Virus record (IMG/VR): IMGVR_UViG_3300037420_000416
Strand: one strand, 5' to 3'
Length of the DNA: 60,742 nucleotides
Origin: a virus
This document shows, piece by piece, positions 8,367 to 60,742 of the stretch. Both the position numbers and the translations under genes were made by a program. The notes under the pieces are model-generated. The model made no database searches. It was given only the letters and a program-made list of their open reading frames with translations, and was not told where the DNA came from. Every line of letters starts with the position of its first letter. Positions within the stretch are counted from its first letter, which is position 1.

Positions 8367-8624
8367 ATGAAGAGCAGGAAGAACGTAGTTGTAAAGGCTT
8401 TGTTCAGCGTCGACCAGTTCGTGGCGCTGGATGAAGAGTGCACTGATGCAGACGTCTCACATAGCGAGCTCCTGCGCGAGTTGTCGATGGAGTGGGTCAG
8501 ACAGCGTCAGTCTACTAAAGCCGAAAGCCAGGGTAAATGGGCAATCAGTGGCCAGAAGATGGCCATACCGAGTGCTAACTCCCGGGTGAATTTCGGCGTC
8601 GCTCCGGTGCGATTACGGGTTTGA
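8367..8624 (+). CDS. Putative ribbon-helix-helix protein (85 aa), possible cII analogue
   Basis: Track ORF 8352..8624 with ATG 8367 after GGAG. VVVKALFSVDQFVALDEECTDADVSHSELLRELSMEW fits an RHH strand/helix/helix pattern. The function is inferred from position only. Confidence 0.45.
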   Translation: MKSRKNVVVKALFSVDQFVALDEECTDADVSHSELLRELSMEWVRQRQSTKAESQGKWAISGQKMAIPSANSRVNFGVAPVRLRV

Positions 8625-15021: not shown

Positions 15022-15567
15022 ATGACCTCAATGAGCATCTTCCGAGAACTGAAGCAGCGCATCAGCCTGGCCTGGCGCATCCTGTGCGACTTCGACAGCC
15101 ATCTCGAAGCGTACGCTGAACGCGAGCTGCGCGCGGCCGGCTACTTCGACGGCGACGAGGCGAACGAGTGGATGGCGCAAGGTGTGCTCGACATGGTCCG
15201 AGTCTACTCGTTACAGGGCCGGCGCGGCACGGATGCATCGGCCGCTTTGCAACTGTTCGACATGCTCGCGCGCTTTCAGCCGATCGGGCCTCTGACCGGC
15301 GCGGATAGCGAATGGGACGACGTCACCGAACTTTCTGGCCGCCCGCTGTGGCTGAACAAGCGCTGCTCGCATGTGTTCAAGGGTGGCGACGGGCAGGCAT
15401 ACGACAGCGAGGCGGTCATCTTTGAAAAGCCGAACGGCGAGCGCCTCACCAGCCGTCAGTTCATCACGTTCCCGTACACGCCGCGTTCGGTCGTCGTGCG
15501 CGTTCCGGTCGACGCGACTGAATCGGACAAGCGTCGGGCCGCGCAGATCGCATGGAGCGCAGCATGA
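15022..15567 (+). CDS. Hypothetical early protein (181 aa)
   Basis: Track ORF with GAGGAG upstream. Confidence 0.6.
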   Translation: MTSMSIFRELKQRISLAWRILCDFDSHLEAYAERELRAAGYFDGDEANEWMAQGVLDMVRVYSLQGRRGTDASAALQLFDMLARFQPIGPLTGADSEWDDVTELSGRPLWLNKRCSHVFKGGDGQAYDSEAVIFEKPNGERLTSRQFITFPYTPRSVVVRVPVDATESDKRRAAQIAWSAA

Positions 15568-16744: not shown

Positions 16745-17659
16745 ATGAAAGCAATCGACCTTTTCGCCGGCGCCGGCGGATTCAGCACCGGTGCCCGCAT
16801 GGCTGGTGTTGACGTCGTGTGGGCAGCGAACCACTGGCCAGCCGCCGTCGCTATCCATTCGCAGAATCATCCGGGCGCAGCGCACGCATGCCAGGATCTG
16901 CACCAAACGAACTGGCAGGACGTGCCGGCGCACGACATCCTGATGGCATCGCCGTGCTGTCAAGGCCACAGCAGGGCGCGCGGCAAGGCCAACGGCAACC
17001 CGCAGCACGACGCCAGCCGCTCTACGGCATGGGCGGTCGTATCGGCGGCCGAGTACCACCGGCCTGCGTTCGCCGTGATCGAGAACGTGCCCGAGTTCAC
17101 GCGCTGGGCGCTGTATCCGGCGTGGTGCGCTGCGATGGATGCGCTGGGGTACGCGCTGACGCCGATGATCGTGGACGCCGCGGATCACGGCGCGCCGCAG
17201 CACCGGGAACGCCTGTTCATCGTGGCGGCCCGGGCCAAACACCCGCTCATGATCGACCTTCCGAAGCAACCGCATGTGCCGGCCAGCAGCTTCATCGATT
17301 TCGGCGCCGGGAGATGGCAGCCGATCGAGAAGCCGGGCCGCGCTGCGAACACGCTAGCGCGCATTGCCGCCGGCCGCGCCGCGCACGGCGACCGCTTCAT
17401 CAGCAGCTACTACGGCGCCGAAAAAGGCGGACGATCGATTGCGCGTCCCGTCGGCACCATCACCACCCGTGACCGCCACGCGATCATTGACGGAGATCGC
17501 ATGCGCATGTTCTCGGCGCAGGAATGCCGGGCCGCGATGGGCTTCCCGGCCGACTACATCCTGCCGGCCGCGCACCGGGACGCCGTACACATGCTGGGTA
17601 ACGCTGTGGCGCAGCCGGCCGCACGCGACGTCATCACGGCGATGCTGGAGGCTGCATGA
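16745..17659 (+). CDS. DNA (cytosine-5)-methyltransferase no. 1 (304 aa)
   Basis: In the frame of track ORF 16718..17659. Motifs: DLFAGAGGFS (I), SPCCQGHS (IV), VIENVPEF (VI), QHRERLFIV (VIII), LGNAVAQP (X). Confidence 0.9.
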   Translation: MKAIDLFAGAGGFSTGARMAGVDVVWAANHWPAAVAIHSQNHPGAAHACQDLHQTNWQDVPAHDILMASPCCQGHSRARGKANGNPQHDASRSTAWAVVSAAEYHRPAFAVIENVPEFTRWALYPAWCAAMDALGYALTPMIVDAADHGAPQHRERLFIVAARAKHPLMIDLPKQPHVPASSFIDFGAGRWQPIEKPGRAANTLARIAAGRAAHGDRFISSYYGAEKGGRSIARPVGTITTRDRHAIIDGDRMRMFSAQECRAAMGFPADYILPAAHRDAVHMLGNAVAQPAARDVITAMLEAA

Positions 17660-28669: not shown

Positions 28670-29062
28670 ATGCTCACCGACGCGCAAAAGGTCGATGTCC
28701 GTCGCTGGATGGGATATCCCACGCTGAACGCCGGCTTTCCCGACACGGTCTACTCGGTTTCTGGCGATCGCCTACAGCCGCCGCTGTCGATTACCCAAAA
28801 GGTAGAGAACCTGAGTGCAAGCGAAGAAACGGTGCTCGTCGACATCTACCTGACGCCGCTCGCGTCGCTTGAAGCCGCGATTCTGACCGTTGGCGACAAC
28901 CTCGATACGGACGCGGCAGCTGTCTGGAAGCGCAACGTCAACGAGCAGGTTGACCGCGAGCGCCTGTTCGACTCGGTGCGTCGCCGCATGTGCGCGTTCC
29001 TGGGCTTCAAGCCGGGGCCGGAACTGGGTGGCGGTAACGCAATTTCGCTGGTGCGCGCCTAG
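28670..29062 (+). CDS. Head completion/connector-module protein (130 aa)
   Basis: Track ORF; assigned by synteny only. Confidence 0.5.
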   Translation: MLTDAQKVDVRRWMGYPTLNAGFPDTVYSVSGDRLQPPLSITQKVENLSASEETVLVDIYLTPLASLEAAILTVGDNLDTDAAAVWKRNVNEQVDRERLFDSVRRRMCAFLGFKPGPELGGGNAISLVRA

Positions 29063-29595
29063 ATGTGCGTCCAGAGCATCCGCCGCCAAATTTGCGAAAC
29101 AGTCGTCGGCGAAATCTTGAATTGAGCGGCAATCGCGGATCCGCAGATGCAGGATGCATGAAGTTGGCGTATTTGCAGAACCTGATCCTCGGTAAGCTTA
29201 GAGCGCCCATGGCGCGATCCGAGAACTGGAGGTTTAAGTCCAGACTGGATGGCATGGTCATTGTTTTGCGCGCGCGAGCACCACTCAAGGTTGTCTGGGC
29301 GTGAATTGGTCTTATCCCCGTCTTTATGGTTGATTTCGGGCAGGTTGTCCGGATTGGGGATGAAGGTTTTGGCGACCAGTCTGTGGACGACATAGCTTTT
29401 CACCTCGCCATCCAAGGACAGGCTGACCACGGGGTAGCGTCGTCCGGTAAGTTGCGGAACCAATATTCGGCCGAACATTCTCCGAAGCGCCTTGCCGGAT
29501 CGAGAAAGCCTGTCCTTTGATCGAATTCGCCCATGACTGGACGCCTCGTAAAAGCCGTTAAAGCCAGGGATTGGCATCCAGATTTCTTCGGTCAT
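29059..29595 (-). CDS. HNH homing endonuclease (NUMOD4-like N-terminus, HNH core, C-terminal HTH), 178 aa
   Basis: Track ORF. WMPIPGFNGFYEASSHGRIRS, INHKDGDKTNSRPDNLEWCSRAQN and ISPTTVSQIW are the recognisable blocks. It sits on the opposite strand inside the head-tail module, in more AT-rich DNA. Confidence 0.85.
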   Translation of the reverse strand: MTEEIWMPIPGFNGFYEASSHGRIRSKDRLSRSGKALRRMFGRILVPQLTGRRYPVVSLSLDGEVKSYVVHRLVAKTFIPNPDNLPEINHKDGDKTNSRPDNLEWCSRAQNNDHAIQSGLKPPVLGSRHGRSKLTEDQVLQIRQLHASCICGSAIAAQFKISPTTVSQIWRRMLWTHI

Positions 29596-29759
29596 TTTGG
29601 CTCCTTTGCTCGGTCGATTGCCTTGCGCAGCCAGTCGGCGCCAAGGCGCTTGAACTTGGCGTGCTGCTCCGGCGTAACACGGATGGTGAGGATGATTGAA
29701 GGCGATCCATCCTTTAACGGTGGACGGCCTTCACGCTTGGGTCTTGGTGGCTTTTCCAT
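29592..29759 (-). CDS. Small RHH-like protein co-transcribed with the HNH gene (55 aa)
   Basis: Track ORF 29592..29789 with ATG 29759; the start is uncertain. GRPPLKDGSPSIILTIRVTPEQHAKFKRLGADWLRKAIDRA. Confidence 0.5.
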   Translation of the reverse strand: MEKPPRPKREGRPPLKDGSPSIILTIRVTPEQHAKFKRLGADWLRKAIDRAKEPK

Positions 29760-29766
29760 ACTTGTA

Positions 29767-29814
29767 TGGTAATACGAAAATGCTCGCACACGTCGCTAGT
29801 TTGGTAATACGAAA
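29767..29814. repeat. Two 13-bp direct repeats TGGTAATACGAAA (29767-29779 and 29802-29814)
   Basis: Read directly. They lie in the 70-bp divergent spacer upstream of the RHH/HNH unit and are a candidate operator pair. Confidence 0.7.
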
Positions 29815-29829
29815 CAAGAGGAAGTTAGC

Positions 29830-30444
29830 ATGATGACCGGCGAACGCCTGCAAGCACTTCTCTACGCCAAATATCCCAAGCTCGCCGCGCGTCAGGGCTT
29901 CATGTACGACGTCTACCGCTTCGACGAGCCGATCGCCGTCACCGATGATCTGAACAAGATCGCGCGCATCCCGGTCGCGCTGGCCGCCGAGAAGAAGTTC
30001 GCGATCCCGAACAAGTACCAAACCCCGACGTGGTATTGCTACGCCGATGGGCGCTTGCTCCAGCCGCGCGACATCCTGATCGGGCCGGCAGGCACGTTCT
30101 ACATCGGCGACATGCAGCCGAACCTGCCGATCCAGGCGGTCGAGACGAACCACGTGATTGCGATTGGCCGCGGCTCGTACGACGGCGGCGACCAGTCGAT
30201 CGAGTTCTACGCCACGGGCATCCCGTGCTTCATGCAGTTCAAGCGCGAGGACATCAAGCAGTCGCAGTACGCGACCACGATGGGGCAGGCGATCACGCAC
30301 TGGACCACGTTCATTCCGCTGCCCGAGGGCACGCTGAAGCAGGACGACGTCGTGCAGGACGAGAACGGCATCCGATACATCGTCGACGCACCGGATTTCA
30401 CCAGCATCGGCTACGTCGCGCACTTGAGGTTGATCACGATATGA
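29830..30444 (+). CDS. Virion-module protein (204 aa)
   Basis: Track ORF with GAGGAAG upstream. Confidence 0.6.
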   Translation: MMTGERLQALLYAKYPKLAARQGFMYDVYRFDEPIAVTDDLNKIARIPVALAAEKKFAIPNKYQTPTWYCYADGRLLQPRDILIGPAGTFYIGDMQPNLPIQAVETNHVIAIGRGSYDGGDQSIEFYATGIPCFMQFKREDIKQSQYATTMGQAITHWTTFIPLPEGTLKQDDVVQDENGIRYIVDAPDFTSIGYVAHLRLITI

Positions 30445-31373: not shown

Positions 31374-31420
31374 CAGTAACCCGCCCGCGGTGAGCGGGAT
31401 TCTCTCAACAAGGAAATATT

Positions 31421-32209
31421 ATGCCCCTCATCAGCAATAGCGACCTTCAGGCCATCGGCGACAAGCTCGCGCGCTTCGCCGCCACATCGGTGGGCGACCC
31501 GAACTTCGACGACGCTTTCACTGCCGGCCTCGACGCTGCCAGCAATGCAGTCCTGTCGGGCTCGAACAGCATCGCGCAATACCTGCTCGACTCCAACGAC
31601 GAAGCCGTGACAGCCGACCTGCTGCCCGCCGCGCGCGACCTGGACGAGTCGCACCCGGTGATGCCGACCGGCTTCCTGCTCGGCATTCCGGGCATCAGCG
31701 CGATGATCAAGGCGCTGGACACACACGTGAAGCGCTACGCCGGCGCCGCCAACTTGGACGCCTACCTGTCGACGCTGAATGCTTCCAGCCCGACGCTGCG
31801 CTTTCACGCCGCGTTCACCGATCACCTCAAGGCGCTGTCGGCCAAGAACGTGTTCATCGGCGCCGACCTCGATATCGCCCGCGTGAACGTTACCGGCGCC
31901 ACGACCGGCACATACACGCACCTGGCCGCGATCGACAAAACCAAATATAGCGGCGCCAAGCTGGTCGCCAAGAACGTCGGCGCACTGACCGCGACGACCG
32001 CGCTGTCGATCACCGGCAAGAAGTTCGACGGCACGACCGCCACGCTGACGGTGTCGATCTCGACGCTGACCGACGCACACGAGACGAACCTGTCCGATAC
32101 CACAAAGGTCTTCGTCGACGTGACCGGCATCACGGTGACGTCGGGCGGCACCTCGGGCAACGTGATCAAGATCGTCGCCAAAACGGACCGCGATATCTCG
32201 GCCGCCTAA
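31421..32209 (+). CDS. Virion structural protein (262 aa)
   Basis: Track ORF with AAGGAA upstream; assigned by synteny only. Confidence 0.55.
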   Translation: MPLISNSDLQAIGDKLARFAATSVGDPNFDDAFTAGLDAASNAVLSGSNSIAQYLLDSNDEAVTADLLPAARDLDESHPVMPTGFLLGIPGISAMIKALDTHVKRYAGAANLDAYLSTLNASSPTLRFHAAFTDHLKALSAKNVFIGADLDIARVNVTGATTGTYTHLAAIDKTKYSGAKLVAKNVGALTATTALSITGKKFDGTTATLTVSISTLTDAHETNLSDTTKVFVDVTGITVTSGGTSGNVIKIVAKTDRDISAA

Positions 32210-32236
32210 CCAACTCCCCTCGAAAGGTAAATCATC

Positions 32237-33004
32237 ATGGCATTTAGCGATAGCTCGTACGGTCTCTTTCAGGGCCAGTTGTTCATCCAGGAGCGTGCAT
32301 TCAACGGCGCGCCGCTCGGTGGCTTCGAATTCATCGGCGACACCGATATGTTCAGCATCGATCCGAAACAAAAATTCGAGGACATCAAGGAGTCGCAATC
32401 CGGCCTGGGCCTGACTGCAGCGCACATCCCGACCGAAACCGACGTCTCGGTCAAGCTGCGCACGCTGGACATCAAGATCGCCAACTGGATCCGCGCGACC
32501 TGGGGCGGCAGCGCCGGCGCAGTCGATGCCGATTCGGTATCTGGCGAATCGATCGTGCTCTACAACGGCCTGATGACGCCGCTCGCGCACCCGGGTGTGT
32601 CGAACGTCGTCGTGTCCGGCGCCGTGTTGGGCACCGATTACACCGTCGATGCGGCGAATGGATCGATCACCGTGCTGGCTTCCTCCAGTGCGATTCCGGA
32701 TGGCTCGCCGCTGACCACTACCGTCAGCTACGACTACGCTGCGTATAACGGCAAGGTCGAAGCGTTCACCACCGGCCAGCGCTACTACACGCTGCGCCTG
32801 CACGGCCGCAACACGGCGCAGGGCAATCAGCCGGTGATCGTGACGTGCCACCAGGCCGCGCTCGACATGGCCAAGGCGTTCTCGCTGATCGAAAAGAAAC
32901 ACCAGACGTTCGAACTCGATGGAATGCTGCTGCAGGACACGACCAAGCCGCTGCCGCAGGCGGCGACGGATCTGAGCCAGTTCTTCACCATCCTGAAGGC
33001 GTAA
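32237..33004 (+). CDS. Major tail tube protein (255 aa)
   Basis: Track ORF. It lies directly upstream of the frameshifting chaperone pair and the tape measure gene. Confidence 0.6.
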   Translation: MAFSDSSYGLFQGQLFIQERAFNGAPLGGFEFIGDTDMFSIDPKQKFEDIKESQSGLGLTAAHIPTETDVSVKLRTLDIKIANWIRATWGGSAGAVDADSVSGESIVLYNGLMTPLAHPGVSNVVVSGAVLGTDYTVDAANGSITVLASSSAIPDGSPLTTTVSYDYAAYNGKVEAFTTGQRYYTLRLHGRNTAQGNQPVIVTCHQAALDMAKAFSLIEKKHQTFELDGMLLQDTTKPLPQAATDLSQFFTILKA

Positions 33005-33007
33005 AGC

Positions 33008-33427
33008 ATGAGCGAAGACCTGAAAGCCCTGTTCCCGGGGCAAGAGGTCGTCGCTGGCGGGGAGACGATCACCGTTTCCCCGTTCGTGTTCGGCCAGTTG
33101 CCCAAGGTGGCGAAGATTTTCGCCAAGATCAAGGACGTCATCGAGGGCGGCAATCTGATCGAGATCGCATCGGCCGGCGGCGAAGACCTCCTGCAGCTGC
33201 TGTGCCTGGCGGTGAATAAGCCGCGCGACTGGTTCGACACGCTACCATCCGACGAAGGCCTCGCGTTGATGGCGACGGTAATTAGCACGAATCGCGATTT
33301 TTTCGTCCAGCGGATGTCTCCCGTTCTGCAAAAGCTGACGCGAGCCGTGAGTGGGACTGGGGCGCCGTCGTCGCCCGCCTCATCCGCGCCGGCCATCGAT
33401 GGGGCGACATCCCCGGCTACACCCTAA
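33008..33427 (+). CDS. Tail assembly chaperone, short form (G-like, 139 aa)
   Basis: Track ORF between the tube and tape measure genes. Confidence 0.7.
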   Translation: MSEDLKALFPGQEVVAGGETITVSPFVFGQLPKVAKIFAKIKDVIEGGNLIEIASAGGEDLLQLLCLAVNKPRDWFDTLPSDEGLALMATVISTNRDFFVQRMSPVLQKLTRAVSGTGAPSSPASSAPAIDGATSPATP

Positions 33428-33567
33428 GCCAGATCAAGCTGTTCCTGCGCGAGGGAAGTTTGCTCGATCGGGAAGAAGCCGCGCAGCGTCTCGCGCATGG
33501 CTGGATGGCTGCGAATGCCGAAGGCGACAAGATCAACGAGGCGATCCAGGCGCTGACGGAGCGCTAA
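33008..33567 (+). CDS. Tail assembly chaperone, -1 frameshift fusion (GT-like, about 186 aa)
   Basis: The slippery heptamer T_TTT_TTC lies at 33298-33304 in the zero frame. The -1 frame is open from 33286 to TAA 33565-33567. It encodes ...REWDWGAVVARLIRAGHRWGDIPGYTLSQIKLFLREGSLLDREEAAQRLAHGWMAANAEGDKINEAIQALTER. Confidence 0.75.
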
Positions 33568-34106
33568 CGCTTCCTTGGAATCTGCGCCAGCCGTTCAAGG
33601 TGCGGCAGCTGATCGTGATGTAGCAGCAGCACTTGCGTACTGGCCGCGAGCGCTTGTGCTGACCGCGTATAGGGCGCCGTGCTGACCACGGCAGCCATGT
33701 GAGCGCCGTAGTGCAGCCGGCCGGCGACTATCTCCTGCACGGCGTGGTTTCCGACGGGATGCGCGTACATCTTGCACTGGATGGCGACCTTCGTGCCGCG
33801 CAGGACCGCTATCACATCGACGCCCTGATCTTGCCTCGCTGTCGTATGTGCCTGCCAGCCGGCGTCGCGCAGCAGTAGCGCGCAATAGGTCTCGTACGCC
33901 AACGGTGATAGGTGCGATACATCGGAGATGCGTAATTGTTGCTCGGCCTCCCGGTATTTTCGGATTCCGACGATAACGACGGCCGGGCAAAAGAAAGCCA
34001 TGAACACCGCATACCAAAACGGTAGGCGCGACAGATACCACCCGAACGCATAAAGCAGTAGGGCGAGCAAAAACAGCTTGAGCAGGTCGGCGAGACGTTC
34101 TTGCAT
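33564..34106 (-). CDS. Membrane-anchored Mrr_cat (PD-(D/E)xK) restriction-endonuclease-like protein (180 aa)
   Basis: Track ORF. Two N-terminal TM helices (LLKLFLLALLLYAFGWYL and FWYAVFMAFFCPAVVIVGI) are followed by LSPLAYETYCALLLRDAGW...QGVDVIAVLRGTKVAIQCKMYAHPVGNHAVQEIVAGRLHYGAHMAAVVSTAPYTRSAQALAASTQVLLLHHDQL, i.e. the Mrr catalytic-domain pattern D...QxK. It is on the opposite strand to the tail operon. Confidence 0.8.
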   Translation of the reverse strand: MQERLADLLKLFLLALLLYAFGWYLSRLPFWYAVFMAFFCPAVVIVGIRKYREAEQQLRISDVSHLSPLAYETYCALLLRDAGWQAHTTARQDQGVDVIAVLRGTKVAIQCKMYAHPVGNHAVQEIVAGRLHYGAHMAAVVSTAPYTRSAQALAASTQVLLLHHDQLPHLERLAQIPRKR

Positions 34107-34122
34107 TATTCAAAATGTAACA
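34107..34122 (-). promoter_or_regulatory. Extended -10 promoter of the Mrr-like gene
   Basis: The minus strand reads TGtTACATT (TG at 34121-34122, -10 at 34114-34119), then 7 nt and the ATG. The mRNA would be leaderless or nearly so. Confidence 0.45.
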
Positions 34123-34141
34123 CAATTCGGATAGACGCTCT

Positions 34142-37100
34142 ATGGCATCGATGAACATTGAGATGCGCCTGGATCTGGTCGATACGGCCAGTGCGCCCGT
34201 CAAGGCGTTCATTGCGACGCTCGGCACATTGGAAACGGCGGTTTCGAATGCGTCGTCCAAGGTGACTGCGTTTGCAGCTGCCATGAAGGAGGTCCAATCC
34301 TCCTTGTCGCTGTCCAAGGCGCGGATGGACAGCGCTGCACAGGGCATCTCCAGCATCACCGCAGCCGCATCCAACTCCGGCTCCGTATCGTCGTTTGCGG
34401 CGGCAATGAATGCGCTTGGCGCATCGATGGGGATCGTGAAAAGCAACGCATCTGGCGTCGCCACGTCTGTTGGTAACATCGGCACGCGCGCGAATGCCGC
34501 TGTGGGCGGCACGACGCAGCTCAACAATACGATCACCCAGCTCAATACCGCGCTGCAGAACCTGATGACGCACGTCACCAGCGCAGTCAGCGGCATGAAC
34601 GCACTGCACACTGCCGCGCAGACTGCTGGCACCGGCACGGCCAACGCCATGAATAACATCGGCAACGGCGCGCAGAACGCGAACCGCCATGTGACAACGC
34701 TTGCCGACACGCTCAAGGGGACGATGCAGTTGTGGGCCGCGCACAAGATTGCGGACGGCCTGAAAGATTCGGTAAGCGAAGCGGCGGAATACGAGCGCAC
34801 GGATAACCGTTTGCGCAACATGAAGCTCAAGCCGGAAGAGTCCGATGCGATCCACAAATCGGTGCGCCAGACGGGGCGCGACTTTCAGCAATTCGACCAA
34901 AACGAACTGCTGGAGATGGCAATCGACCTGCGCAACGCCACCGGCAGCGCGCACGAAGCGGCTGAGGGTCTGAAAGGCTTCGCGCAGTCCGTCTTCGCCA
35001 TCAACCTGTCCATGCCGAGCGGGAAAAAGCTTGACGAGCAGGGCACGCTGAACTTCGCCAAGTTCCTCGAGGGCCGCGGTGTGACGATGGACCCGGCCGC
35101 GATGGCGGCTCAGCAGGATCTCGTTACGAAGATCGTCGCCGCGACGCAAGGCCGCGTGAACCCGAACAACCTGTTCGGCAACCTGACGTATGCCAAGGGC
35201 GGCCTCGGGCGCACGATGGACGACGAGGCGCTTGTGACGTTCGCCGCGATGATTGAGCAGGACACGCGCGGCGGCGGCACCGGCGGCACCGTGGGAACGA
35301 TGCTGACCTCGTTTGTCAACAGCATTACCAAGGCGAACGCGATCACGACCAAGAACCGCGACGAGTGGTTCAAACTGGGCCTCGTTGACCCGGAAAAGGT
35401 CAACGTTAACAAGAACACAGATCGCGTGACGAGCATCCAGGCTGGCGCCATTGCTGGCACAGAGATCGTCGGCAAGAACTTCAAGCAATGGGTCGATGAG
35501 TACCTGCGCCCGGCGCTAATCAAGGCTGGCGTCAACATGGATGACCTGACGGCGGTCAAGGCGAAGACCGACGTCCTATTCCCGAACCGGAACGCGGCAG
35601 AGGCAGCATTCCAACTGCTGTCGAAGAAGGATCTGATCGAGAAGGACTCGGCCAATATCACCGGCACCGCAGGAAAAGACGAACAAGTCGCGAGCGGGCA
35701 GAAGCTATCTGTGGCTGCCTGGGAGCGATTCCACAAAGCGATCAACGATCTCGCTATTGCTATTGGCACGACACTGCTGCCGGTCCTGAATCCGCTACTG
35801 GAGGGTTTCACCAAGATTATTCAGGTGCTGGGCCAGTTCTCGTCTGATCACCCTGTATTCGGCTTCCTGCTCGGTCTTGTTGGCGCGGCGGCTGGCGTAA
35901 GTCTCGCCCTTGCTGGCCTCAAAACGCTGTTCGGAGTTACCTTCGGCGGGTTGGCGGGCCTGATCGGCAAGGCTGTCATGGAGGCTGGTTCGTTGTTCAT
36001 GGGCTTCGCTGGCGCCATCGCTGAAGCAGGGCGGTTCATCGCTGTTGTCGTGCGCATGATCCTTGGGGGATTTACGCCGTTGGGGTGGGTAATTACCGCC
36101 ATCGTGGCCGCATGGGAGTTGGGCCTCGGCGACTGGCTGTCGAAGCTGAACGTATTTGGCCATTCGGTTGGCGACTGGGCGTCATCTCTGTCCGACAAGG
36201 TCGTAAATTCGTTCCAGAACATGTGGGTCCGCACAAAGGAGTATTTCGGTTTCCTGTCAAAGGACGCCGCCGACGCCCAAATCGATGCGAATAACCGTGC
36301 TAGTGCCCATAAGCAGAGCAAGTTGGGTTTTGGCTCAATGCCGGCCGCAAAGCGCGGCGGAGCTTCAGGCGATTGGGAAGACGCGCCAGTCAAAAAGGGT
36401 GGCAAGGGCTCGATTCTGAGCCTGGATCGCAAGCTGACATCGTCCGATGCTCCTGCTATGCTCGGAGGCGACGAGGAGTCGGAAATCGCCGATCAATTAG
36501 CACGAAACAAGGCCGGGTCCGCGCGATTCCTCGGTGGCGGCACGCGCAAGCCAAAACGTGGACGCTTCGCCAACTACGACGAGAACCTCGACGACGCCAA
36601 GAACGACCTGCGCCTGGAAGAGGACGAGCTCGCGCGCCACATGAAGGCCGAGGAGGAGCTCTACAAGGCCAACAAGCTGTCGATCGACGAGTACTACGAC
36701 GACAAGCTCAACACGATGCGCAAGAGCGTTGATGCGCAGATCAAAGAGCTCGAGCGCGAAAAGGCCGCCTACCAGAAGCAGGGCGACAAGGCCGGCGTGA
36801 ACCGCACCGAGACCGAAATCACGCTTCGCAAGCGCGACCTGTCTGACAACGAGAAATCGGTCGAGGTGCAGCGCCAGAAAGACCTCAATGCGCTGAAAGA
36901 GAAGGGCTTGCAGCTGGACGCCCAGCAACTGGAGGCCGAAGGCAAGAAAAGCCAGTCCGTTCTCGCGCGCGAAATCCAGAGGCTCAAGAAGGACCAGGAA
37001 GAATACCTGCGTAATGGCGACTACGAGCATGCGGTCCGCGCGCAGCAGGCCATCGATACCGCGAAACTGACCGCCGCGTGGGAGCAGTACGGCGACGCGG

Positions 37101-37915
37101 TCAAGAGGGTGCACGAGGAGACACAGACCAAGGAAGCCGCGGTCGATGCGCAGGTAAAATCCGGTAACCTCACGCGATACTCCGCCGAGCAAAAGGTCTT
37201 CGCCCTGCGGCAACAGGAAGCACGCCAGCTTGACGAGTTGATCGCCAAGGAGCGAGCGCTGATCCAAGCGTCGGATGCACCGCAGGCGGAGAAAGACCGC
37301 CGCCTGAAGACACTCGACTTGGCCAAGGCGAAGAACGACTCGACGCTGTCCGAAATGAACCCGGATCTGCTGCGCGCCAAGGAGACGGTCGACAGCAGTG
37401 TCCAAGGAGGATTCGAGAACTTCTTCAACAGCGTCATCAGCCGTTCCAAGTCGGCGGGCGATGCGATCAAGGATTTCGCGAACAACATCAAGTCGACGTT
37501 CACGAAGCTGATTTCAGAGCAACTGGGCAAAAGCCTGTTCAAGTCGTTGTTCGGTGAGGGTGGCGTCGGCTCTGGTGGCGGTCTGTTCGGCGACCTGTTC
37601 AGTGGTCTGTTCGGCGGCAACTCGTCTGGATCAGGCGGAGGTGGCGGAAGCTCTGGCGGCGGCTTCCTGTCGGGCCTCTCAAACCTGTTCAGCTTCGACG
37701 TCGGCACCGATGAAGTGCCGCGCGACATGATCGCCCAGATCCACAAGGGCGAGATGATCGTGCCGGCGTACGACGCGGAGCGGCTTCGTTCGCTCAAGCC
37801 GGGCGGGCAGCAGAGTGCTCCGCCGCCCGTCCTGCAGATTCACCCTGACGCCTTCCACATGAAGCTTGGTGACTGGCTTGAGGGCGAGATGGCTAGACAA
37901 CTGGCACACCGATGA
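34142..37915 (+). CDS. Tape measure protein (1257 aa)
   Basis: Track ORF. Size, coiled-coil centre, hydrophobic block (about aa 555-640) and Gly-rich C-terminal tract fit, as does the position after the chaperone pair. Confidence 0.9.
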   Translation: MASMNIEMRLDLVDTASAPVKAFIATLGTLETAVSNASSKVTAFAAAMKEVQSSLSLSKARMDSAAQGISSITAAASNSGSVSSFAAAMNALGASMGIVKSNASGVATSVGNIGTRANAAVGGTTQLNNTITQLNTALQNLMTHVTSAVSGMNALHTAAQTAGTGTANAMNNIGNGAQNANRHVTTLADTLKGTMQLWAAHKIADGLKDSVSEAAEYERTDNRLRNMKLKPEESDAIHKSVRQTGRDFQQFDQNELLEMAIDLRNATGSAHEAAEGLKGFAQSVFAINLSMPSGKKLDEQGTLNFAKFLEGRGVTMDPAAMAAQQDLVTKIVAATQGRVNPNNLFGNLTYAKGGLGRTMDDEALVTFAAMIEQDTRGGGTGGTVGTMLTSFVNSITKANAITTKNRDEWFKLGLVDPEKVNVNKNTDRVTSIQAGAIAGTEIVGKNFKQWVDEYLRPALIKAGVNMDDLTAVKAKTDVLFPNRNAAEAAFQLLSKKDLIEKDSANITGTAGKDEQVASGQKLSVAAWERFHKAINDLAIAIGTTLLPVLNPLLEGFTKIIQVLGQFSSDHPVFGFLLGLVGAAAGVSLALAGLKTLFGVTFGGLAGLIGKAVMEAGSLFMGFAGAIAEAGRFIAVVVRMILGGFTPLGWVITAIVAAWELGLGDWLSKLNVFGHSVGDWASSLSDKVVNSFQNMWVRTKEYFGFLSKDAADAQIDANNRASAHKQSKLGFGSMPAAKRGGASGDWEDAPVKKGGKGSILSLDRKLTSSDAPAMLGGDEESEIADQLARNKAGSARFLGGGTRKPKRGRFANYDENLDDAKNDLRLEEDELARHMKAEEELYKANKLSIDEYYDDKLNTMRKSVDAQIKELEREKAAYQKQGDKAGVNRTETEITLRKRDLSDNEKSVEVQRQKDLNALKEKGLQLDAQQLEAEGKKSQSVLAREIQRLKKDQEEYLRNGDYEHAVRAQQAIDTAKLTAAWEQYGDAVKRVHEETQTKEAAVDAQVKSGNLTRYSAEQKVFALRQQEARQLDELIAKERALIQASDAPQAEKDRRLKTLDLAKAKNDSTLSEMNPDLLRAKETVDSSVQGGFENFFNSVISRSKSAGDAIKDFANNIKSTFTKLISEQLGKSLFKSLFGEGGVGSGGGLFGDLFSGLFGGNSSGSGGGGGSSGGGFLSGLSNLFSFDVGTDEVPRDMIAQIHKGEMIVPAYDAERLRSLKPGGQQSAPPPVLQIHPDAFHMKLGDWLEGEMARQLAHR

Positions 37916-38130
37916 CGATTTCAGCCTACCCACAAAACGTCGCCGTCGATGCGACATCGCTACTGATCTTCTCGGGGCCGCCGAATGTCACCGTTCAATG
38001 GACGCTGACCGGAAGCGGCCTTCTGGAGCCGGTAGAGGCATATACGGACGCCAGCGGGCGCGCACACGCCAAATACACGCCGGGCGACGTGGGGGACGTT
38101 GTGACGATCGCAGTAACGCATGGAACCTAG
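37912..38130 (+). CDS. Small Ig-like tail protein (72 aa)
   Basis: Track ORF, ATGA-coupled to the tape measure gene. ...VTVQWTLTGSGLLEP...TDASGRAHAKYTPGDVGDVVTIAVTHG resembles a bacterial Ig-like fold. Confidence 0.5.
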   Translation: MTISAYPQNVAVDATSLLIFSGPPNVTVQWTLTGSGLLEPVEAYTDASGRAHAKYTPGDVGDVVTIAVTHGT

Positions 38131-38139
38131 GACTTTTCA

Positions 38140-38673
38140 ATGACGATTTTGACCAGTTCGGCGACTATCGCGGTCGGCGACGGAGCTACGGCCGTCGATT
38201 CGGTGCAGTTGACAGTGCTGCCGGCCGTCGGCGCACCCAATGGCCGCGGGCGCCTGGTTCATCCGTCGCTCGGCACGTACGACTACGTGCGCGGGCCTGA
38301 CGAATGGACCAACATCGACGGAGACGCCATCATCGCGCCGATCTGGGCGAGCACGAAGACCCTGCTCGGCTCCGCGAACACGCTTTTCGTCGGCAATTTA
38401 CGTGACGTCACGGTAGAGGAGCGCTGGACGCAATCCGTGGCCGGCGAAATCGATCTTGTACGCACGCTGCTCGCCTTCTGGATGAACCCGGTCGATCCGT
38501 CGCTCGCCTACGTCGAGTGGTATCCGACCTACACCAGCAACCTGGGATTCAAGGTGATCATTCTGTCGCTGACGGTCGGCGGCAAGGACATTACCTTGTC
38601 GTCGCTCGTTCATCAGGGCTGGGTGCGTGGTCCGATCGTGCTGAAGATGAAGATCGCGGGGCGTGTCGAATGA
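38140..38673 (+). CDS. Tail tip / distal tail protein (177 aa)
   Basis: Track ORF; assigned by synteny. Confidence 0.55.
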   Translation: MTILTSSATIAVGDGATAVDSVQLTVLPAVGAPNGRGRLVHPSLGTYDYVRGPDEWTNIDGDAIIAPIWASTKTLLGSANTLFVGNLRDVTVEERWTQSVAGEIDLVRTLLAFWMNPVDPSLAYVEWYPTYTSNLGFKVIILSLTVGGKDITLSSLVHQGWVRGPIVLKMKIAGRVE

Positions 38674-52549: not shown

Positions 52550-53647
52550 TTAATGCTCGATCACCTGCCAATCACCTCTGAGATCATGATACTTGTCGGT
52601 CATGGCGGCGGTCTTATGACCCAACATCGATTGGGCGAACGCGGCGCCGAACTGCTCACGATACAGCCGCTCCGACAAGCTCCGGATCTCATGGAAGGTT
52701 GGTGGTGTGCGACCTTCGGCCGCCTTAATGCCCGCCGCCTTGCGGGCGCTCTGGAAGGCGTTCGACAGACCGTTGCTCGTCACCCGATCGCCAGGCTTTG
52801 CTGATCCCTGGTGCTCGACGTGGTGCACAAGGTACTGTGTTGTGATGAGGTCGCGGCATGCCTGAACGGCTTCGCCGATCGATACACCTACCTTATCTAG
52901 CCGGATCTCGCCGCTTAGCCGAAGCTTCACGGTCCCATTGCTCTTGCCTTGGGTGATGTGCAAATATCCTTCGCGCCAGTCCGAAAACTTCAGGCTCGCG
53001 ATGTCGTCGCGGCGCTGAGCAGTGGTTAGGGCGAGATACATCGCGCGCTGGAGCCACTTCGGCGCCTTGGCGTGGATCGCATGGAACTGGTCGAGCGAAA
53101 GGCGCTCGCGCGTCACCTGCGGCCTCGGCGCCCTGGTTGCTGATACCGGATTGCGTCCGACCTCAATCAAGCCTTGTGTCTCGGCCCAGCGGAATACGTC
53201 GCTCATGCGCGTTCGCACCGCGTTGGCGGTCGCCTTGCCACTTTCCTTTTCCACGTCCTCCAGAAACCTCGCCACGTGAGCCGTAGAGATATCCTGCAGG
53301 CGCCGCTTGCCGATATCCGCCTCGGCCATGCGCTTGACGTACATCGTGCAGGAGCGAATCGTATTGTCGCGCGGCTTCTTCTTCTCAAGCCACAATTCCT
53401 TGTACACCGGCAGCCATCCTTCCAGGGTGTACTCCGTCTTGCCCATCACCCAGTCGACGAGAGAGGAGGGCTTGCGCGTTGCCAGCGCGGCGTTCGCGGC
53501 GCGCGCTTCCTGCACGGCATGCGCCTTGTCCCGGCCAAGCCCTTTTTGCGTTTTCTCCACCGGATTGCGGTAATAGAAATACCCCGCCGGGTTCTGGTAC
53601 AGGTTCGGCGGCAGGGCGCGATTCTTGGCAAGTCGTCGACGTCCCAT
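52550..53647 (-). CDS. int: Tyrosine integrase (365 aa)
   Basis: Track ORF. ...ALTTAQRRDDI..., FHEIRSL, MLGHKTAAMTDKYH supply the R...HxxR...Y catalytic signature. Confidence 0.92.
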   Translation of the reverse strand: MGRRRLAKNRALPPNLYQNPAGYFYYRNPVEKTQKGLGRDKAHAVQEARAANAALATRKPSSLVDWVMGKTEYTLEGWLPVYKELWLEKKKPRDNTIRSCTMYVKRMAEADIGKRRLQDISTAHVARFLEDVEKESGKATANAVRTRMSDVFRWAETQGLIEVGRNPVSATRAPRPQVTRERLSLDQFHAIHAKAPKWLQRAMYLALTTAQRRDDIASLKFSDWREGYLHITQGKSNGTVKLRLSGEIRLDKVGVSIGEAVQACRDLITTQYLVHHVEHQGSAKPGDRVTSNGLSNAFQSARKAAGIKAAEGRTPPTFHEIRSLSERLYREQFGAAFAQSMLGHKTAAMTDKYHDLRGDWQVIEH

Positions 53648-60636: not shown

Positions 60637-60742
60637 GCTGCCACCTCATTGGCTTGGACTGCGTTGATGTGACGGACCAGGGCGGCACAGATTGCCGGGA
60701 AATCCGACTCGTGATACAGCTTGGCCGACTTGTCGGTGGCCG
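60633..60742 (-). CDS. 3' end of the YqaJ-like exonuclease gene (the same ORF as 1..1760, via the circular junction)
   Basis: Stop TGA at 60633-60635. 60652-60742 duplicates 1-91. The frame is continuous (1779 nt in total). Confidence 0.8.
   Translation of the reverse strand, partial: ATDKSAKLYHESDFPAICAALVRHINAVQANEVAA
60652..60742. repeat. Terminal direct repeat, copy 2 (identical to 1-91)
   Basis: Same reading as for copy 1. Confidence 0.95.

Follow-up and report, generated by a model that had tools for sequence, protein, structure and literature searches.

A predicted membrane-anchored Mrr-type nuclease gene, antisense between the tail chaperone and tape measure genes of a temperate phage, as a candidate exclusion gene

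We analysed a 60,742-nt stretch of viral DNA (IMG/VR record IMGVR_UViG_3300037420_000416; by "the window" we mean this whole stretch) in which a 180-aa open reading frame (ORF) on the minus strand lies between the tail assembly chaperone genes and the tape measure gene. The encoded protein is predicted to join a hairpin of two transmembrane (TM) helices to an Mrr_cat nuclease domain, and a promoter-like element conserved in diverged relatives stands just upstream of its ATG. The gene is real, constrained and under purifying selection. The reading we favour, tentatively, is that it encodes an exclusion nuclease, prophage- or early-expressed, that is held at the membrane and attacks DNA as it enters. 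The features of the gene are the following.

33564..34106, minus strand: 180-aa Mrr_cat nuclease ORF with a predicted membrane anchor, ATG start
33603..33914, minus strand: Mrr_cat PD-(D/E)xK domain, residues 65-168 (Pfam PF04471, E=1.1e-19, 71.1 bits against a cut-off of 21)
33771..33893, minus strand: span of the putative catalytic codons (E72 at 33891-33893, D97 at 33816-33818, Q110-C111-K112 at 33771-33779)
33963..34085, minus strand: codons of two hydrophobic helices, residues 8-25 and 30-48, with the 4-residue loop SRLP (from hydropathy and AlphaFold2)
34107..34141: divergent intergenic spacer of 35 nt separating the two start codons (nuclease and tape measure)
34114-34122, minus strand: extended -10 promoter-like element TGTTACATT, ending 7 nt before the nuclease ATG

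The Mrr_cat assignment of the original prediction, checked with Pfam, stands, with further support from the fold and the active site. Over the same stretch Pfam gives weaker matches to Mrr_cat_2 and NA-iREase1 (1.2e-07, 32 bits). Residues E72, D97 (in GVDVIA), Q110 and K112 (in IQCK) are invariant across 56 homologues, and in a profile match they align with the GVDxxA...AIQxK of the active LlaBIII Mrr-like nuclease domain. The D-x(n)-QxK arrangement is reportedly the Mrr-type variant of the motif. AlphaFold2, run on the homologue alignment, returns a model with a pLDDT (predicted local distance difference test) of 94.8, in which helices at residues 2-27 and 30-60 are followed by the nuclease fold, and Foldseek matches AF1548 (Mrr-like), MspJI, AspBHI and Hjc, each with probability 1.00. 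From the sequence we infer that the nuclease is catalytically competent. The ratio of nonsynonymous to synonymous substitution rates (dN/dS) against five relatives is 0.08-0.15 in the nuclease domain and 0.4-0.56 in residues 1-60. Neither Pfam nor NCBIfam finds a DNA-reader domain (Mrr_N winged helix, SRA or the like) in the protein, and NCBIfam has no family for it or for two longer relatives. Searched for a known defence system with PADLOC, the protein gives matches to its nuclease domain but no full-length match. The best is to the C-terminal Mrr-like domain of ZorD (2.2e-15; protein residues 45-170 on profile positions 927-1059 of 1071). The PDC-S02 profile is matched at positions 192-302 of 334 only, which is the nuclease domain and short of full length, as it is for the longer relatives, and the mREase_IV match is weak.

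The N-terminal two-helix anchor is also borne out as a prediction, by Kyte-Doolittle 19-residue means that peak at 1.85 (residues 8-25) and 2.24 (residues 30-48) and by the helical hairpin that AlphaFold2 places there. The loop holds one lysine or arginine and the flank past the second helix four, which favours an N-in/C-in hairpin that would leave the nuclease in the cytoplasm. The anchor sequence is variable yet hydrophobic throughout 20 homologues. In distant relatives the anchors are mutually non-homologous: some are a Pfam TM2 domain (contig L093 and Roseburia phage Jekyll), some are generic hairpins, and in Morganella, Providencia, Salmonella and other Enterobacterales the anchor is one TM segment with a linker of ~100 aa. 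Because anchors are retained across lineages through non-homologous modules, membrane attachment itself seems selected. Pfam detects no holin family in the window protein, and its remaining matches in the anchor region are sub-threshold.

The extended -10 element that the original prediction placed 7 nt from the ATG is present and is backed by its conservation in diverged relatives. The motif TGNTANNNT is under-represented in the whole window (23 matches over the two strands, where shuffles give 36 +/- 5), and the chance of a match in the 3-nt register before the nuclease ATG is ~6e-4. In an alignment of nine diverged relatives, T..TG.TA...T are the sole invariant intergenic bases, with the TG element 6-7 nt before the ATG. 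The variants among relatives are TGTTACATT, TGTTATCGT, TGCTAGATT, TGTTATATT and TGCTATGTT, and in 11 further distinct sequences the element stands 15-16 nt before the ATG. Close relatives have a spacer of 33-35 nt. In L069 and L071 it measures 16 nt and reads GTGCTACCTTGxCxGG in full, the element being kept; in L031 the TACATT is kept and the TG is displaced by one base. Every relative examined starts with ATG and has no Shine-Dalgarno sequence. A -10 element only 6-7 nt from the ATG, with no Shine-Dalgarno sequence, suggests a leaderless mRNA. The transcript of lambda cI from PRM is leaderless. That the 7-nt spacing implies such an mRNA is a point absent from the earlier reading. A scan of positions 32900-34500 for sigma-70 two-hexamer promoters and for terminators returned none of either. 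The locus on L094, a contig with 29% GC, has instead TTGTAA-17-TATACT and AAAGGAGG. Since L094 thus has promoter-like hexamers of its own together with AAAGGAGG, an independent transcription unit appears to be the common theme. The L094 nuclease ORF has no ATG, GTG or TTG after its upstream stops, so its start is probably an ATT or ATA directly after AAAGGAGG.

The nuclease gene sits in a module of canonical siphovirus tail genes, all on the plus strand, and is antisense between the chaperone genes (G and its frameshift product GT, T being the extension) and the tape measure gene.

32237..33004, plus strand: major tail protein (phrog_807, 1.4e-50)
33008..33427, plus strand: tail assembly chaperone G (phrog_1442, 4.7e-26; Pfam DUF6631)
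33298-33304, plus strand: slippery heptamer T_TTT_TTC, in frame, within the DFFV motif of G
34142..37915, plus strand: tape measure protein gene, 1257 aa (phrog_28, 1.1e-24; phrog_2335, 2.4e-21)

The DFFV motif is invariant among G homologues, and the -1 frame, which would be the T extension, is open from 33286 to a TAA at 33565-33567; a G/GT frameshift at the heptamer is plausible. The nuclease stop at 33564-33566 (CTA on the plus strand, that is TAG) and the T stop overlap over 33564-33567, exactly 4 nt. The position, strand and 180-aa length of the ORF, its 4-nt stop overlap and its neighbours are all as originally described. The G+C content is 0.600 in the nuclease gene, 0.600 in the genome, 0.624 in G and 0.602 in the tape measure gene.

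All of the viral contigs found through the chaperone that have an intact junction (19/19) have the nuclease gene in antisense orientation directly beside the tape measure gene, and they include L029, at 42% identity in G and 28% in the tape measure protein. Divergence of the nuclease tracks that of its flanks, and the gene evolves at its neighbours' pace. A search with an alignment of the major tail protein gave three further informative cases (L152/L155, L137 and L154). L152 and L155 are the same contigs as L069 and L071, and the cassette is present in them. L154 is an empty site: the T stop, a TGA at 8455-8457, is followed 3 nt on by the tape measure GTG at 8461, and there is no nuclease gene within 7 kb on either side. 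Its identity to the window is 55% in the major tail protein, 34% in G and 34% in the tape measure protein. Since GT and the tape measure gene abut in L154, the cassette either counts as inserted when set against at least one relative or was lost from that relative.

Within the lineage the cassette is a fixed resident. What varies is a slot from the T stop to the nuclease stop, beside the nuclease and not replacing it, with the following contents.

window: 0 nt
L010, 4557-4883, minus strand: 108-aa signal-peptide protein
L012 (4644-5072, plus strand), L003 (6540-6971) and L005 (6538-6966): 142-143-aa signal-peptide protein
L137, 4300-8920: 4.6 kb with HicB, an Arc-like repressor and a Rha/ANT antirepressor

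The slot proteins of L010 and of L012, L003 and L005 have no Pfam, PHROG or PADLOC matches. The L010 slot gene is on the nuclease strand, directly downstream, and may be co-transcribed. In L137, whose major tail protein is 84% identical, the insert resembles the P22 immI region, here inside the tail operon. When the window gene is compared with that of L010 (4901-5434), the anchor half is near-identical, with a synonymous divergence (dS) of 0.10, against a dS of 0.82 in the nuclease half, which places a recombination joint inside the nuclease gene; the 5' end of the tape measure gene, adjoining the anchor half, is 94% identical between the two.

The nuclease is therefore not the swappable cargo of a hotspot, an idea that the original prediction had raised: all 19 relatives carry it, its G+C is that of the genome and it has no terminator. 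The moron architecture claimed for it (Juhala/Hendrix definition, as quoted in PMC3594210) holds in part: the flanking genes are adjacent in L154, and the conserved -10 element, which has no recognisable -35, may be a promoter of its own, but there is no terminator and the G+C of the gene equals that of the genome. The sequence evidence supports reading it as an accessory gene of the tail operon with a transcript of its own.

A scan of viral contigs gave 202 relatives of the nuclease domain, and a crude hydropathy screen found at least one N-terminal hydrophobic segment before the domain in 26 of 39 loci outside this lineage. Mrr_cat genes with a predicted membrane anchor stand next to tape measure genes from no fewer than six PHROG families. 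The loci and their arrangements are as follows.

L033, L073 and L074: tape measure of phrog_2276, nuclease downstream on the same strand
L093: tape measure of phrog_1535, convergent, 20 nt apart
L094: tape measure of phrog_1535, same arrangement as in the window
L104: tape measure of phrog_167, nuclease gene flanked by those of the major tail protein and G
L083: tape measure of phrog_9570, convergent, 530 nt apart
L071: tape measure of phrog_1272, divergent
L091: tape measure of phrog_28, divergent

At L094 (5706-6660) the antisense nuclease gene ends 30 nt from the chaperone genes and the tape measure gene diverges from it. Its product has two TM helices, Mrr_cat and a C-terminal FtsK_gamma DNA-binding domain (5.5e-16). 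The cassette, with the nuclease gene pointing towards GT and away from the tape measure gene, spans phages from 29% GC Firmicute-type to 60-68% GC proteobacterial. There are counter-examples: L086 lies by a tail fibre gene, L100 by a serine integrase gene and L075 by a portal gene, L080 is in a restriction-modification context, and many further nuclease-domain loci have no large ORF nearby. By a rough count, made after the pattern was noticed, ~7 independent lineages of ~30 have a tape measure gene no more than 1 kb away, where ~7% would be expected (binomial 0.004). In a Providencia myovirus-type prophage (L033 8001-10200; also L034) the nuclease gene follows the tape measure gene, and Arc/Mnt and a P22-type antirepressor come after it. 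In Roseburia phage Jekyll the homologue is in the lysogeny module, between a toxin-antitoxin pair and the integrase. In two high-GC relatives, L084 (5956-6489) and L091 (5980-6450), a CxxC...CxxC tail resembles a zinc ribbon. In the literature we found no paper on a phage-borne TM-Mrr_cat gene or on its association with tape measure genes. The points that seem new and testable are the conserved promoter-like element with its predicted leaderless transcript, the fixed cassette with its variable slot, and the recurrent placement by tape measure genes.

The ends of the window carry a 91-nt exact direct repeat (1-91 = 60652-60742), from which we take it to be a complete, circularly assembled phage genome of ~60.65 kb (~60,651 bp) and not, as first supposed, a prophage flanked by host DNA. 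The phage is temperate, as was proposed, given a lambda-type integrase and a relative that may be integrated, its contig being 143 kb against a phage genome of ~60 kb. Also encoded in the genome are RecT, DnaB, a Cro-like helix-turn-helix (HTH) protein, two DNA methyltransferases and a Tad3 homologue; the annotations of the last three are taken from the identical JGI (Joint Genome Institute) contig L009.

11108-11848: N6/N4 DNA methyltransferase, early region
15022-15567: homologue of the anti-Thoeris protein Tad3 (PF25185), early region
16745-17659: C5 DNA methyltransferase, early region
52550..53647, minus strand: lambda-type tyrosine integrase (Pfam Phage_integrase 6.8e-18, Arm-DNA-bind_1 6.7e-13)

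With the Tad3 homologue and the methyltransferases in its early region, the phage would hold counter-defence genes beside a putative defence gene. Positions 31400-38200 have zero megablast matches in 50,697 GenBank phages, so metagenomes are the only known source of the lineage; with tblastn, the same phages give distant domain-level matches only. The chaperone alignment found nothing in species-representative genomes, and the nuclease alignment found distant relatives only, at <=56% identity across the domain. The nearest named sources are metagenome-assembled genomes of Burkholderiales and Xanthobacteraceae. A second antisense gene within the structural module encodes an HNH (NUMOD4/HNH_3) homing-type endonuclease (29059-29595, minus strand; phrog_59, 9.2e-47), preceded by a 65-aa ORF (29592-29789, minus strand). 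Another TGnTAnnnT element, TGCTAACTT at 29822-29830 (minus strand), is upstream of both. Relatives have further HNH/NUMOD genes in the interval from the major tail protein to G (L003 7601-8374, L031 9138-9992).

In the reading that we favour, the hairpin of two N-terminal TM helices would hold an Mrr-type PD-(D/E)xK DNase on the cytoplasmic face of the membrane, and the extended -10 promoter would fire 6-7 nt before the ATG to give a leaderless mRNA running against the late tail operon. With its own transcription unit, the nuclease could be made at times without late-operon expression, whether in a lysogen or in early infection, and head-on late transcription would probably interfere with the gene in late lytic growth. 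Since the protein has no DNA-recognition domain, its discrimination of targets would be spatial: the tether would keep the nuclease off the nucleoid, DNA crossing the inner membrane through the tail/tape measure conduit would be cut, and superinfecting phages would be excluded, as SNIPE does with a different nuclease. By analogy the idea is plausible, with direct precedents in SNIPE, Epona and ZorD. SNIPE, or PD-lambda-1 (Saxton et al., Nature 2026, PMC13190303), is an inner-membrane-anchored, cytoplasmic nuclease that cuts lambda DNA during injection; it associates with tape measure proteins and is toxic once its anchor is removed, so that tethering prevents self-cleavage. Epona (Darracq et al., bioRxiv 10.1101/2024.07.02.601686), from a cassette of the V. 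cholerae superintegron, is described as combining Mrr_cat with a two-TM holin domain and lowers phage plating. ZorD of type I Zorya acts on incoming phage DNA once recruited by the membrane ZorAB complex.

Several points weigh against this reading. The scan of 32900-34500 shows no recognisable -35 and no intrinsic terminator. The products of L084 and L091, at the tape-measure-divergent position, have no TM segment at all, with a C-terminal Cys-rich tail instead; being soluble, they indicate that membrane tethering is not obligatory for the role of the cassette. The PADLOC matches are domain-only, both for the window protein and for eight longer relatives. Of the precedents, Epona is without a known mechanism and is active only in the heterologous host E. 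coli, and SNIPE requires DUF4041 to bind DNA and the tape measure, whereas the window protein is anchor and catalytic domain only. The phage's own two DNA methyltransferases leave room for discrimination by modification. The topology, the transcription start, expression in lysogens, the nuclease activity and the exclusion phenotype are each things that we infer. A broader version, which we regard as unlikely, is that membrane-anchored Mrr_cat nucleases form a widespread, unrecognised class of phage exclusion proteins at the injection site, genetically linked to tape measure genes. The fast-evolving anchor, and not a domain of the DUF4041 type, would then engage the tape measure or the inner-membrane conduit, and, through linkage to the resident tape measure allele, the nuclease would preferentially exclude kin phages.

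It is improbable that the protein is an abortive-infection or toxin effector, that is, an inactive nuclease held at the membrane which, released or activated by membrane perturbation or depolarisation, degrades host and phage DNA and kills the cell. The Epona anchor is described as a holin domain (bioRxiv 10.1101/2024.07.02.601686), most integron systems tested in native V. cholerae led to lysis or growth arrest at high multiplicity of infection, Mrr_cat serves as the effector in Lamassu, Avs and NLR-like abortive systems, and the window protein has no sensor or DNA-reader domain. Yet Pfam detects no holin family in it, its sequence suggests no release mechanism, and SNIPE, which is constitutively membrane-bound, gives direct, non-abortive defence (PMC13190303). 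We give still less weight to restriction with the anchor incidental, in which the enzyme would cut by modification state, as Mrr and MspJI do, or would cut unmodified DNA while the phage methyltransferases protect. The MspJI and AspBHI catalytic domains among the closest structural matches, the weak mREase_IV match and the N6/N4 and C5 methyltransferases fit this. The protein, however, has a TM hairpin at its N-terminus and no Mrr_N, SRA or other reader, the methyltransferase genes are >16 kb off in the early region and not adjacent as in restriction-modification pairs, and the anchor is kept across lineages through non-homologous modules.

A role in the lytic cycle (degradation of host DNA near the membrane, processing of the phage's own entering DNA, or exclusion of competitors in lytic growth only), in place of a function expressed in lysogens, strikes us as equally doubtful. 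Retention of the gene in all 19 chaperone-found relatives at its neighbours' pace of evolution, and a G+C indistinguishable from that of the genome, would suit such a role, and a constitutive promoter would fire early in infection too. The gene, however, is antisense to the entire late operon, so that head-on collisions are expected while late genes are on; it is dispensable, since L154 lacks it; and homologues lie in lysogeny modules or by Arc/antirepressor modules. A catalytically silent fold that binds or tethers DNA at the membrane, for example in prophage or replicon positioning, is very improbable: the Pfam match to NA-iREase1, an "inactive restriction endonuclease" family (1.2e-07), points that way, but Mrr_cat scores far higher (71 against 32 bits) and the full E/D/QxK set is invariant in the 56 homologues and aligns to the active LlaBIII motif. 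We rejected it on this conservation of the active site. Scarcely credible at all is a free-standing homing endonuclease, a selfish element that would have entered the junction of GT and the tape measure gene. The gene does lie between conserved structural genes, and the same genomes carry HNH (29059..29595) and NUMOD/HNH genes (L003, L031); those, however, are sporadic, whereas the nuclease is present in 19/19 relatives with a divergence that follows its flanks, and it was on this distribution that we rejected a homing enzyme. A membrane anchor makes no sense for one either, and Pfam finds no NUMOD, HTH or other DNA-binding module in the protein.

If the exclusion reading is true, temperate phages carry a minimal, one-protein strategy of cutting the invader at the door, a strategy recently demonstrated with SNIPE and assembled in this case from a nuclease fold unrelated to it; 180 aa and a leaderless transcript would be about the smallest design that tells self from non-self DNA by location. 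The tape measure is the component through which SNIPE, HK97 gp15 and Ltp act, and recurrence beside tape measure genes gives a testable hypothesis of how such a nuclease finds the entry site. Adjacency to the tape measure gene is also a simple genomic rule for locating more such nucleases in prophages. Such genes would shape which phages superinfect lysogens, a matter relevant to phage therapy and virome ecology.

The original prediction knew of no characterised defence protein that combines this layout with this position, and here it was mistaken, as HK97 gp15 has the slot, Epona has the layout and SNIPE is a membrane nuclease that cuts injected DNA. HK97 gp15, the original moron, occupies the slot between tail chaperone and tape measure; the prophage expresses it as a small inner-membrane exclusion protein, which stops genomes from entering (Cumby et al. 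2012; PMC3594210). It shares its slot with the window nuclease; it is YebO-like and has no nuclease domain, and the window gene is antisense and, by prediction, leaderless. SieA, from the temperate phage P22, is likewise a small protein of the inner membrane and blocks the entry of DNA. In P22, sieA adjoins mnt-arc-ant, and the homologues of the window gene in L033, L034 and L137 likewise adjoin Arc/Mnt/antirepressor modules; SieA, however, has three TM helices, no nuclease domain and no sequence similarity. E. coli Mrr, MspJI and AspBHI have the same catalytic fold and the D...QxK variant of the active site, but they are soluble, with an N-terminal modification reader where the window protein has its membrane hairpin. 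Where papers on defence screens mention Mrr, the architecture is a different one (a beta-propeller fusion, a STAND NTPase, Lamassu). ZorD, a soluble helicase-nuclease of the SNF2 type, is >1000 aa long and depends on ZorABC, and only its C-terminal ~130 residues match; the window gene has tail genes for neighbours, with no zorABC and no SNF2 core. No Vibrio protein is among the best 120 profile matches of the nuclease. Epona, compared by its description, is like the window protein one small protein with a two-TM N-terminal module and Mrr_cat. It differs in that its anchor is called a holin domain and its gene is a chromosomal integron cassette, not part of a phage tail operon. With SNIPE the window protein shares the pattern of a poorly conserved anchor region and a conserved nuclease. 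SNIPE came from an E. coli pangenome screen, whereas the window gene is phage-borne and adjoins the tape measure gene. SNIPE consists of one TM segment, DUF4041 (which binds DNA and the tape measure protein) and GIY-YIG; the window protein has two TM helices and PD-(D/E)xK with no middle domain, and DUF4041 is absent from its Pfam matches at E<=0.1. The two proteins are analogous, not homologous.

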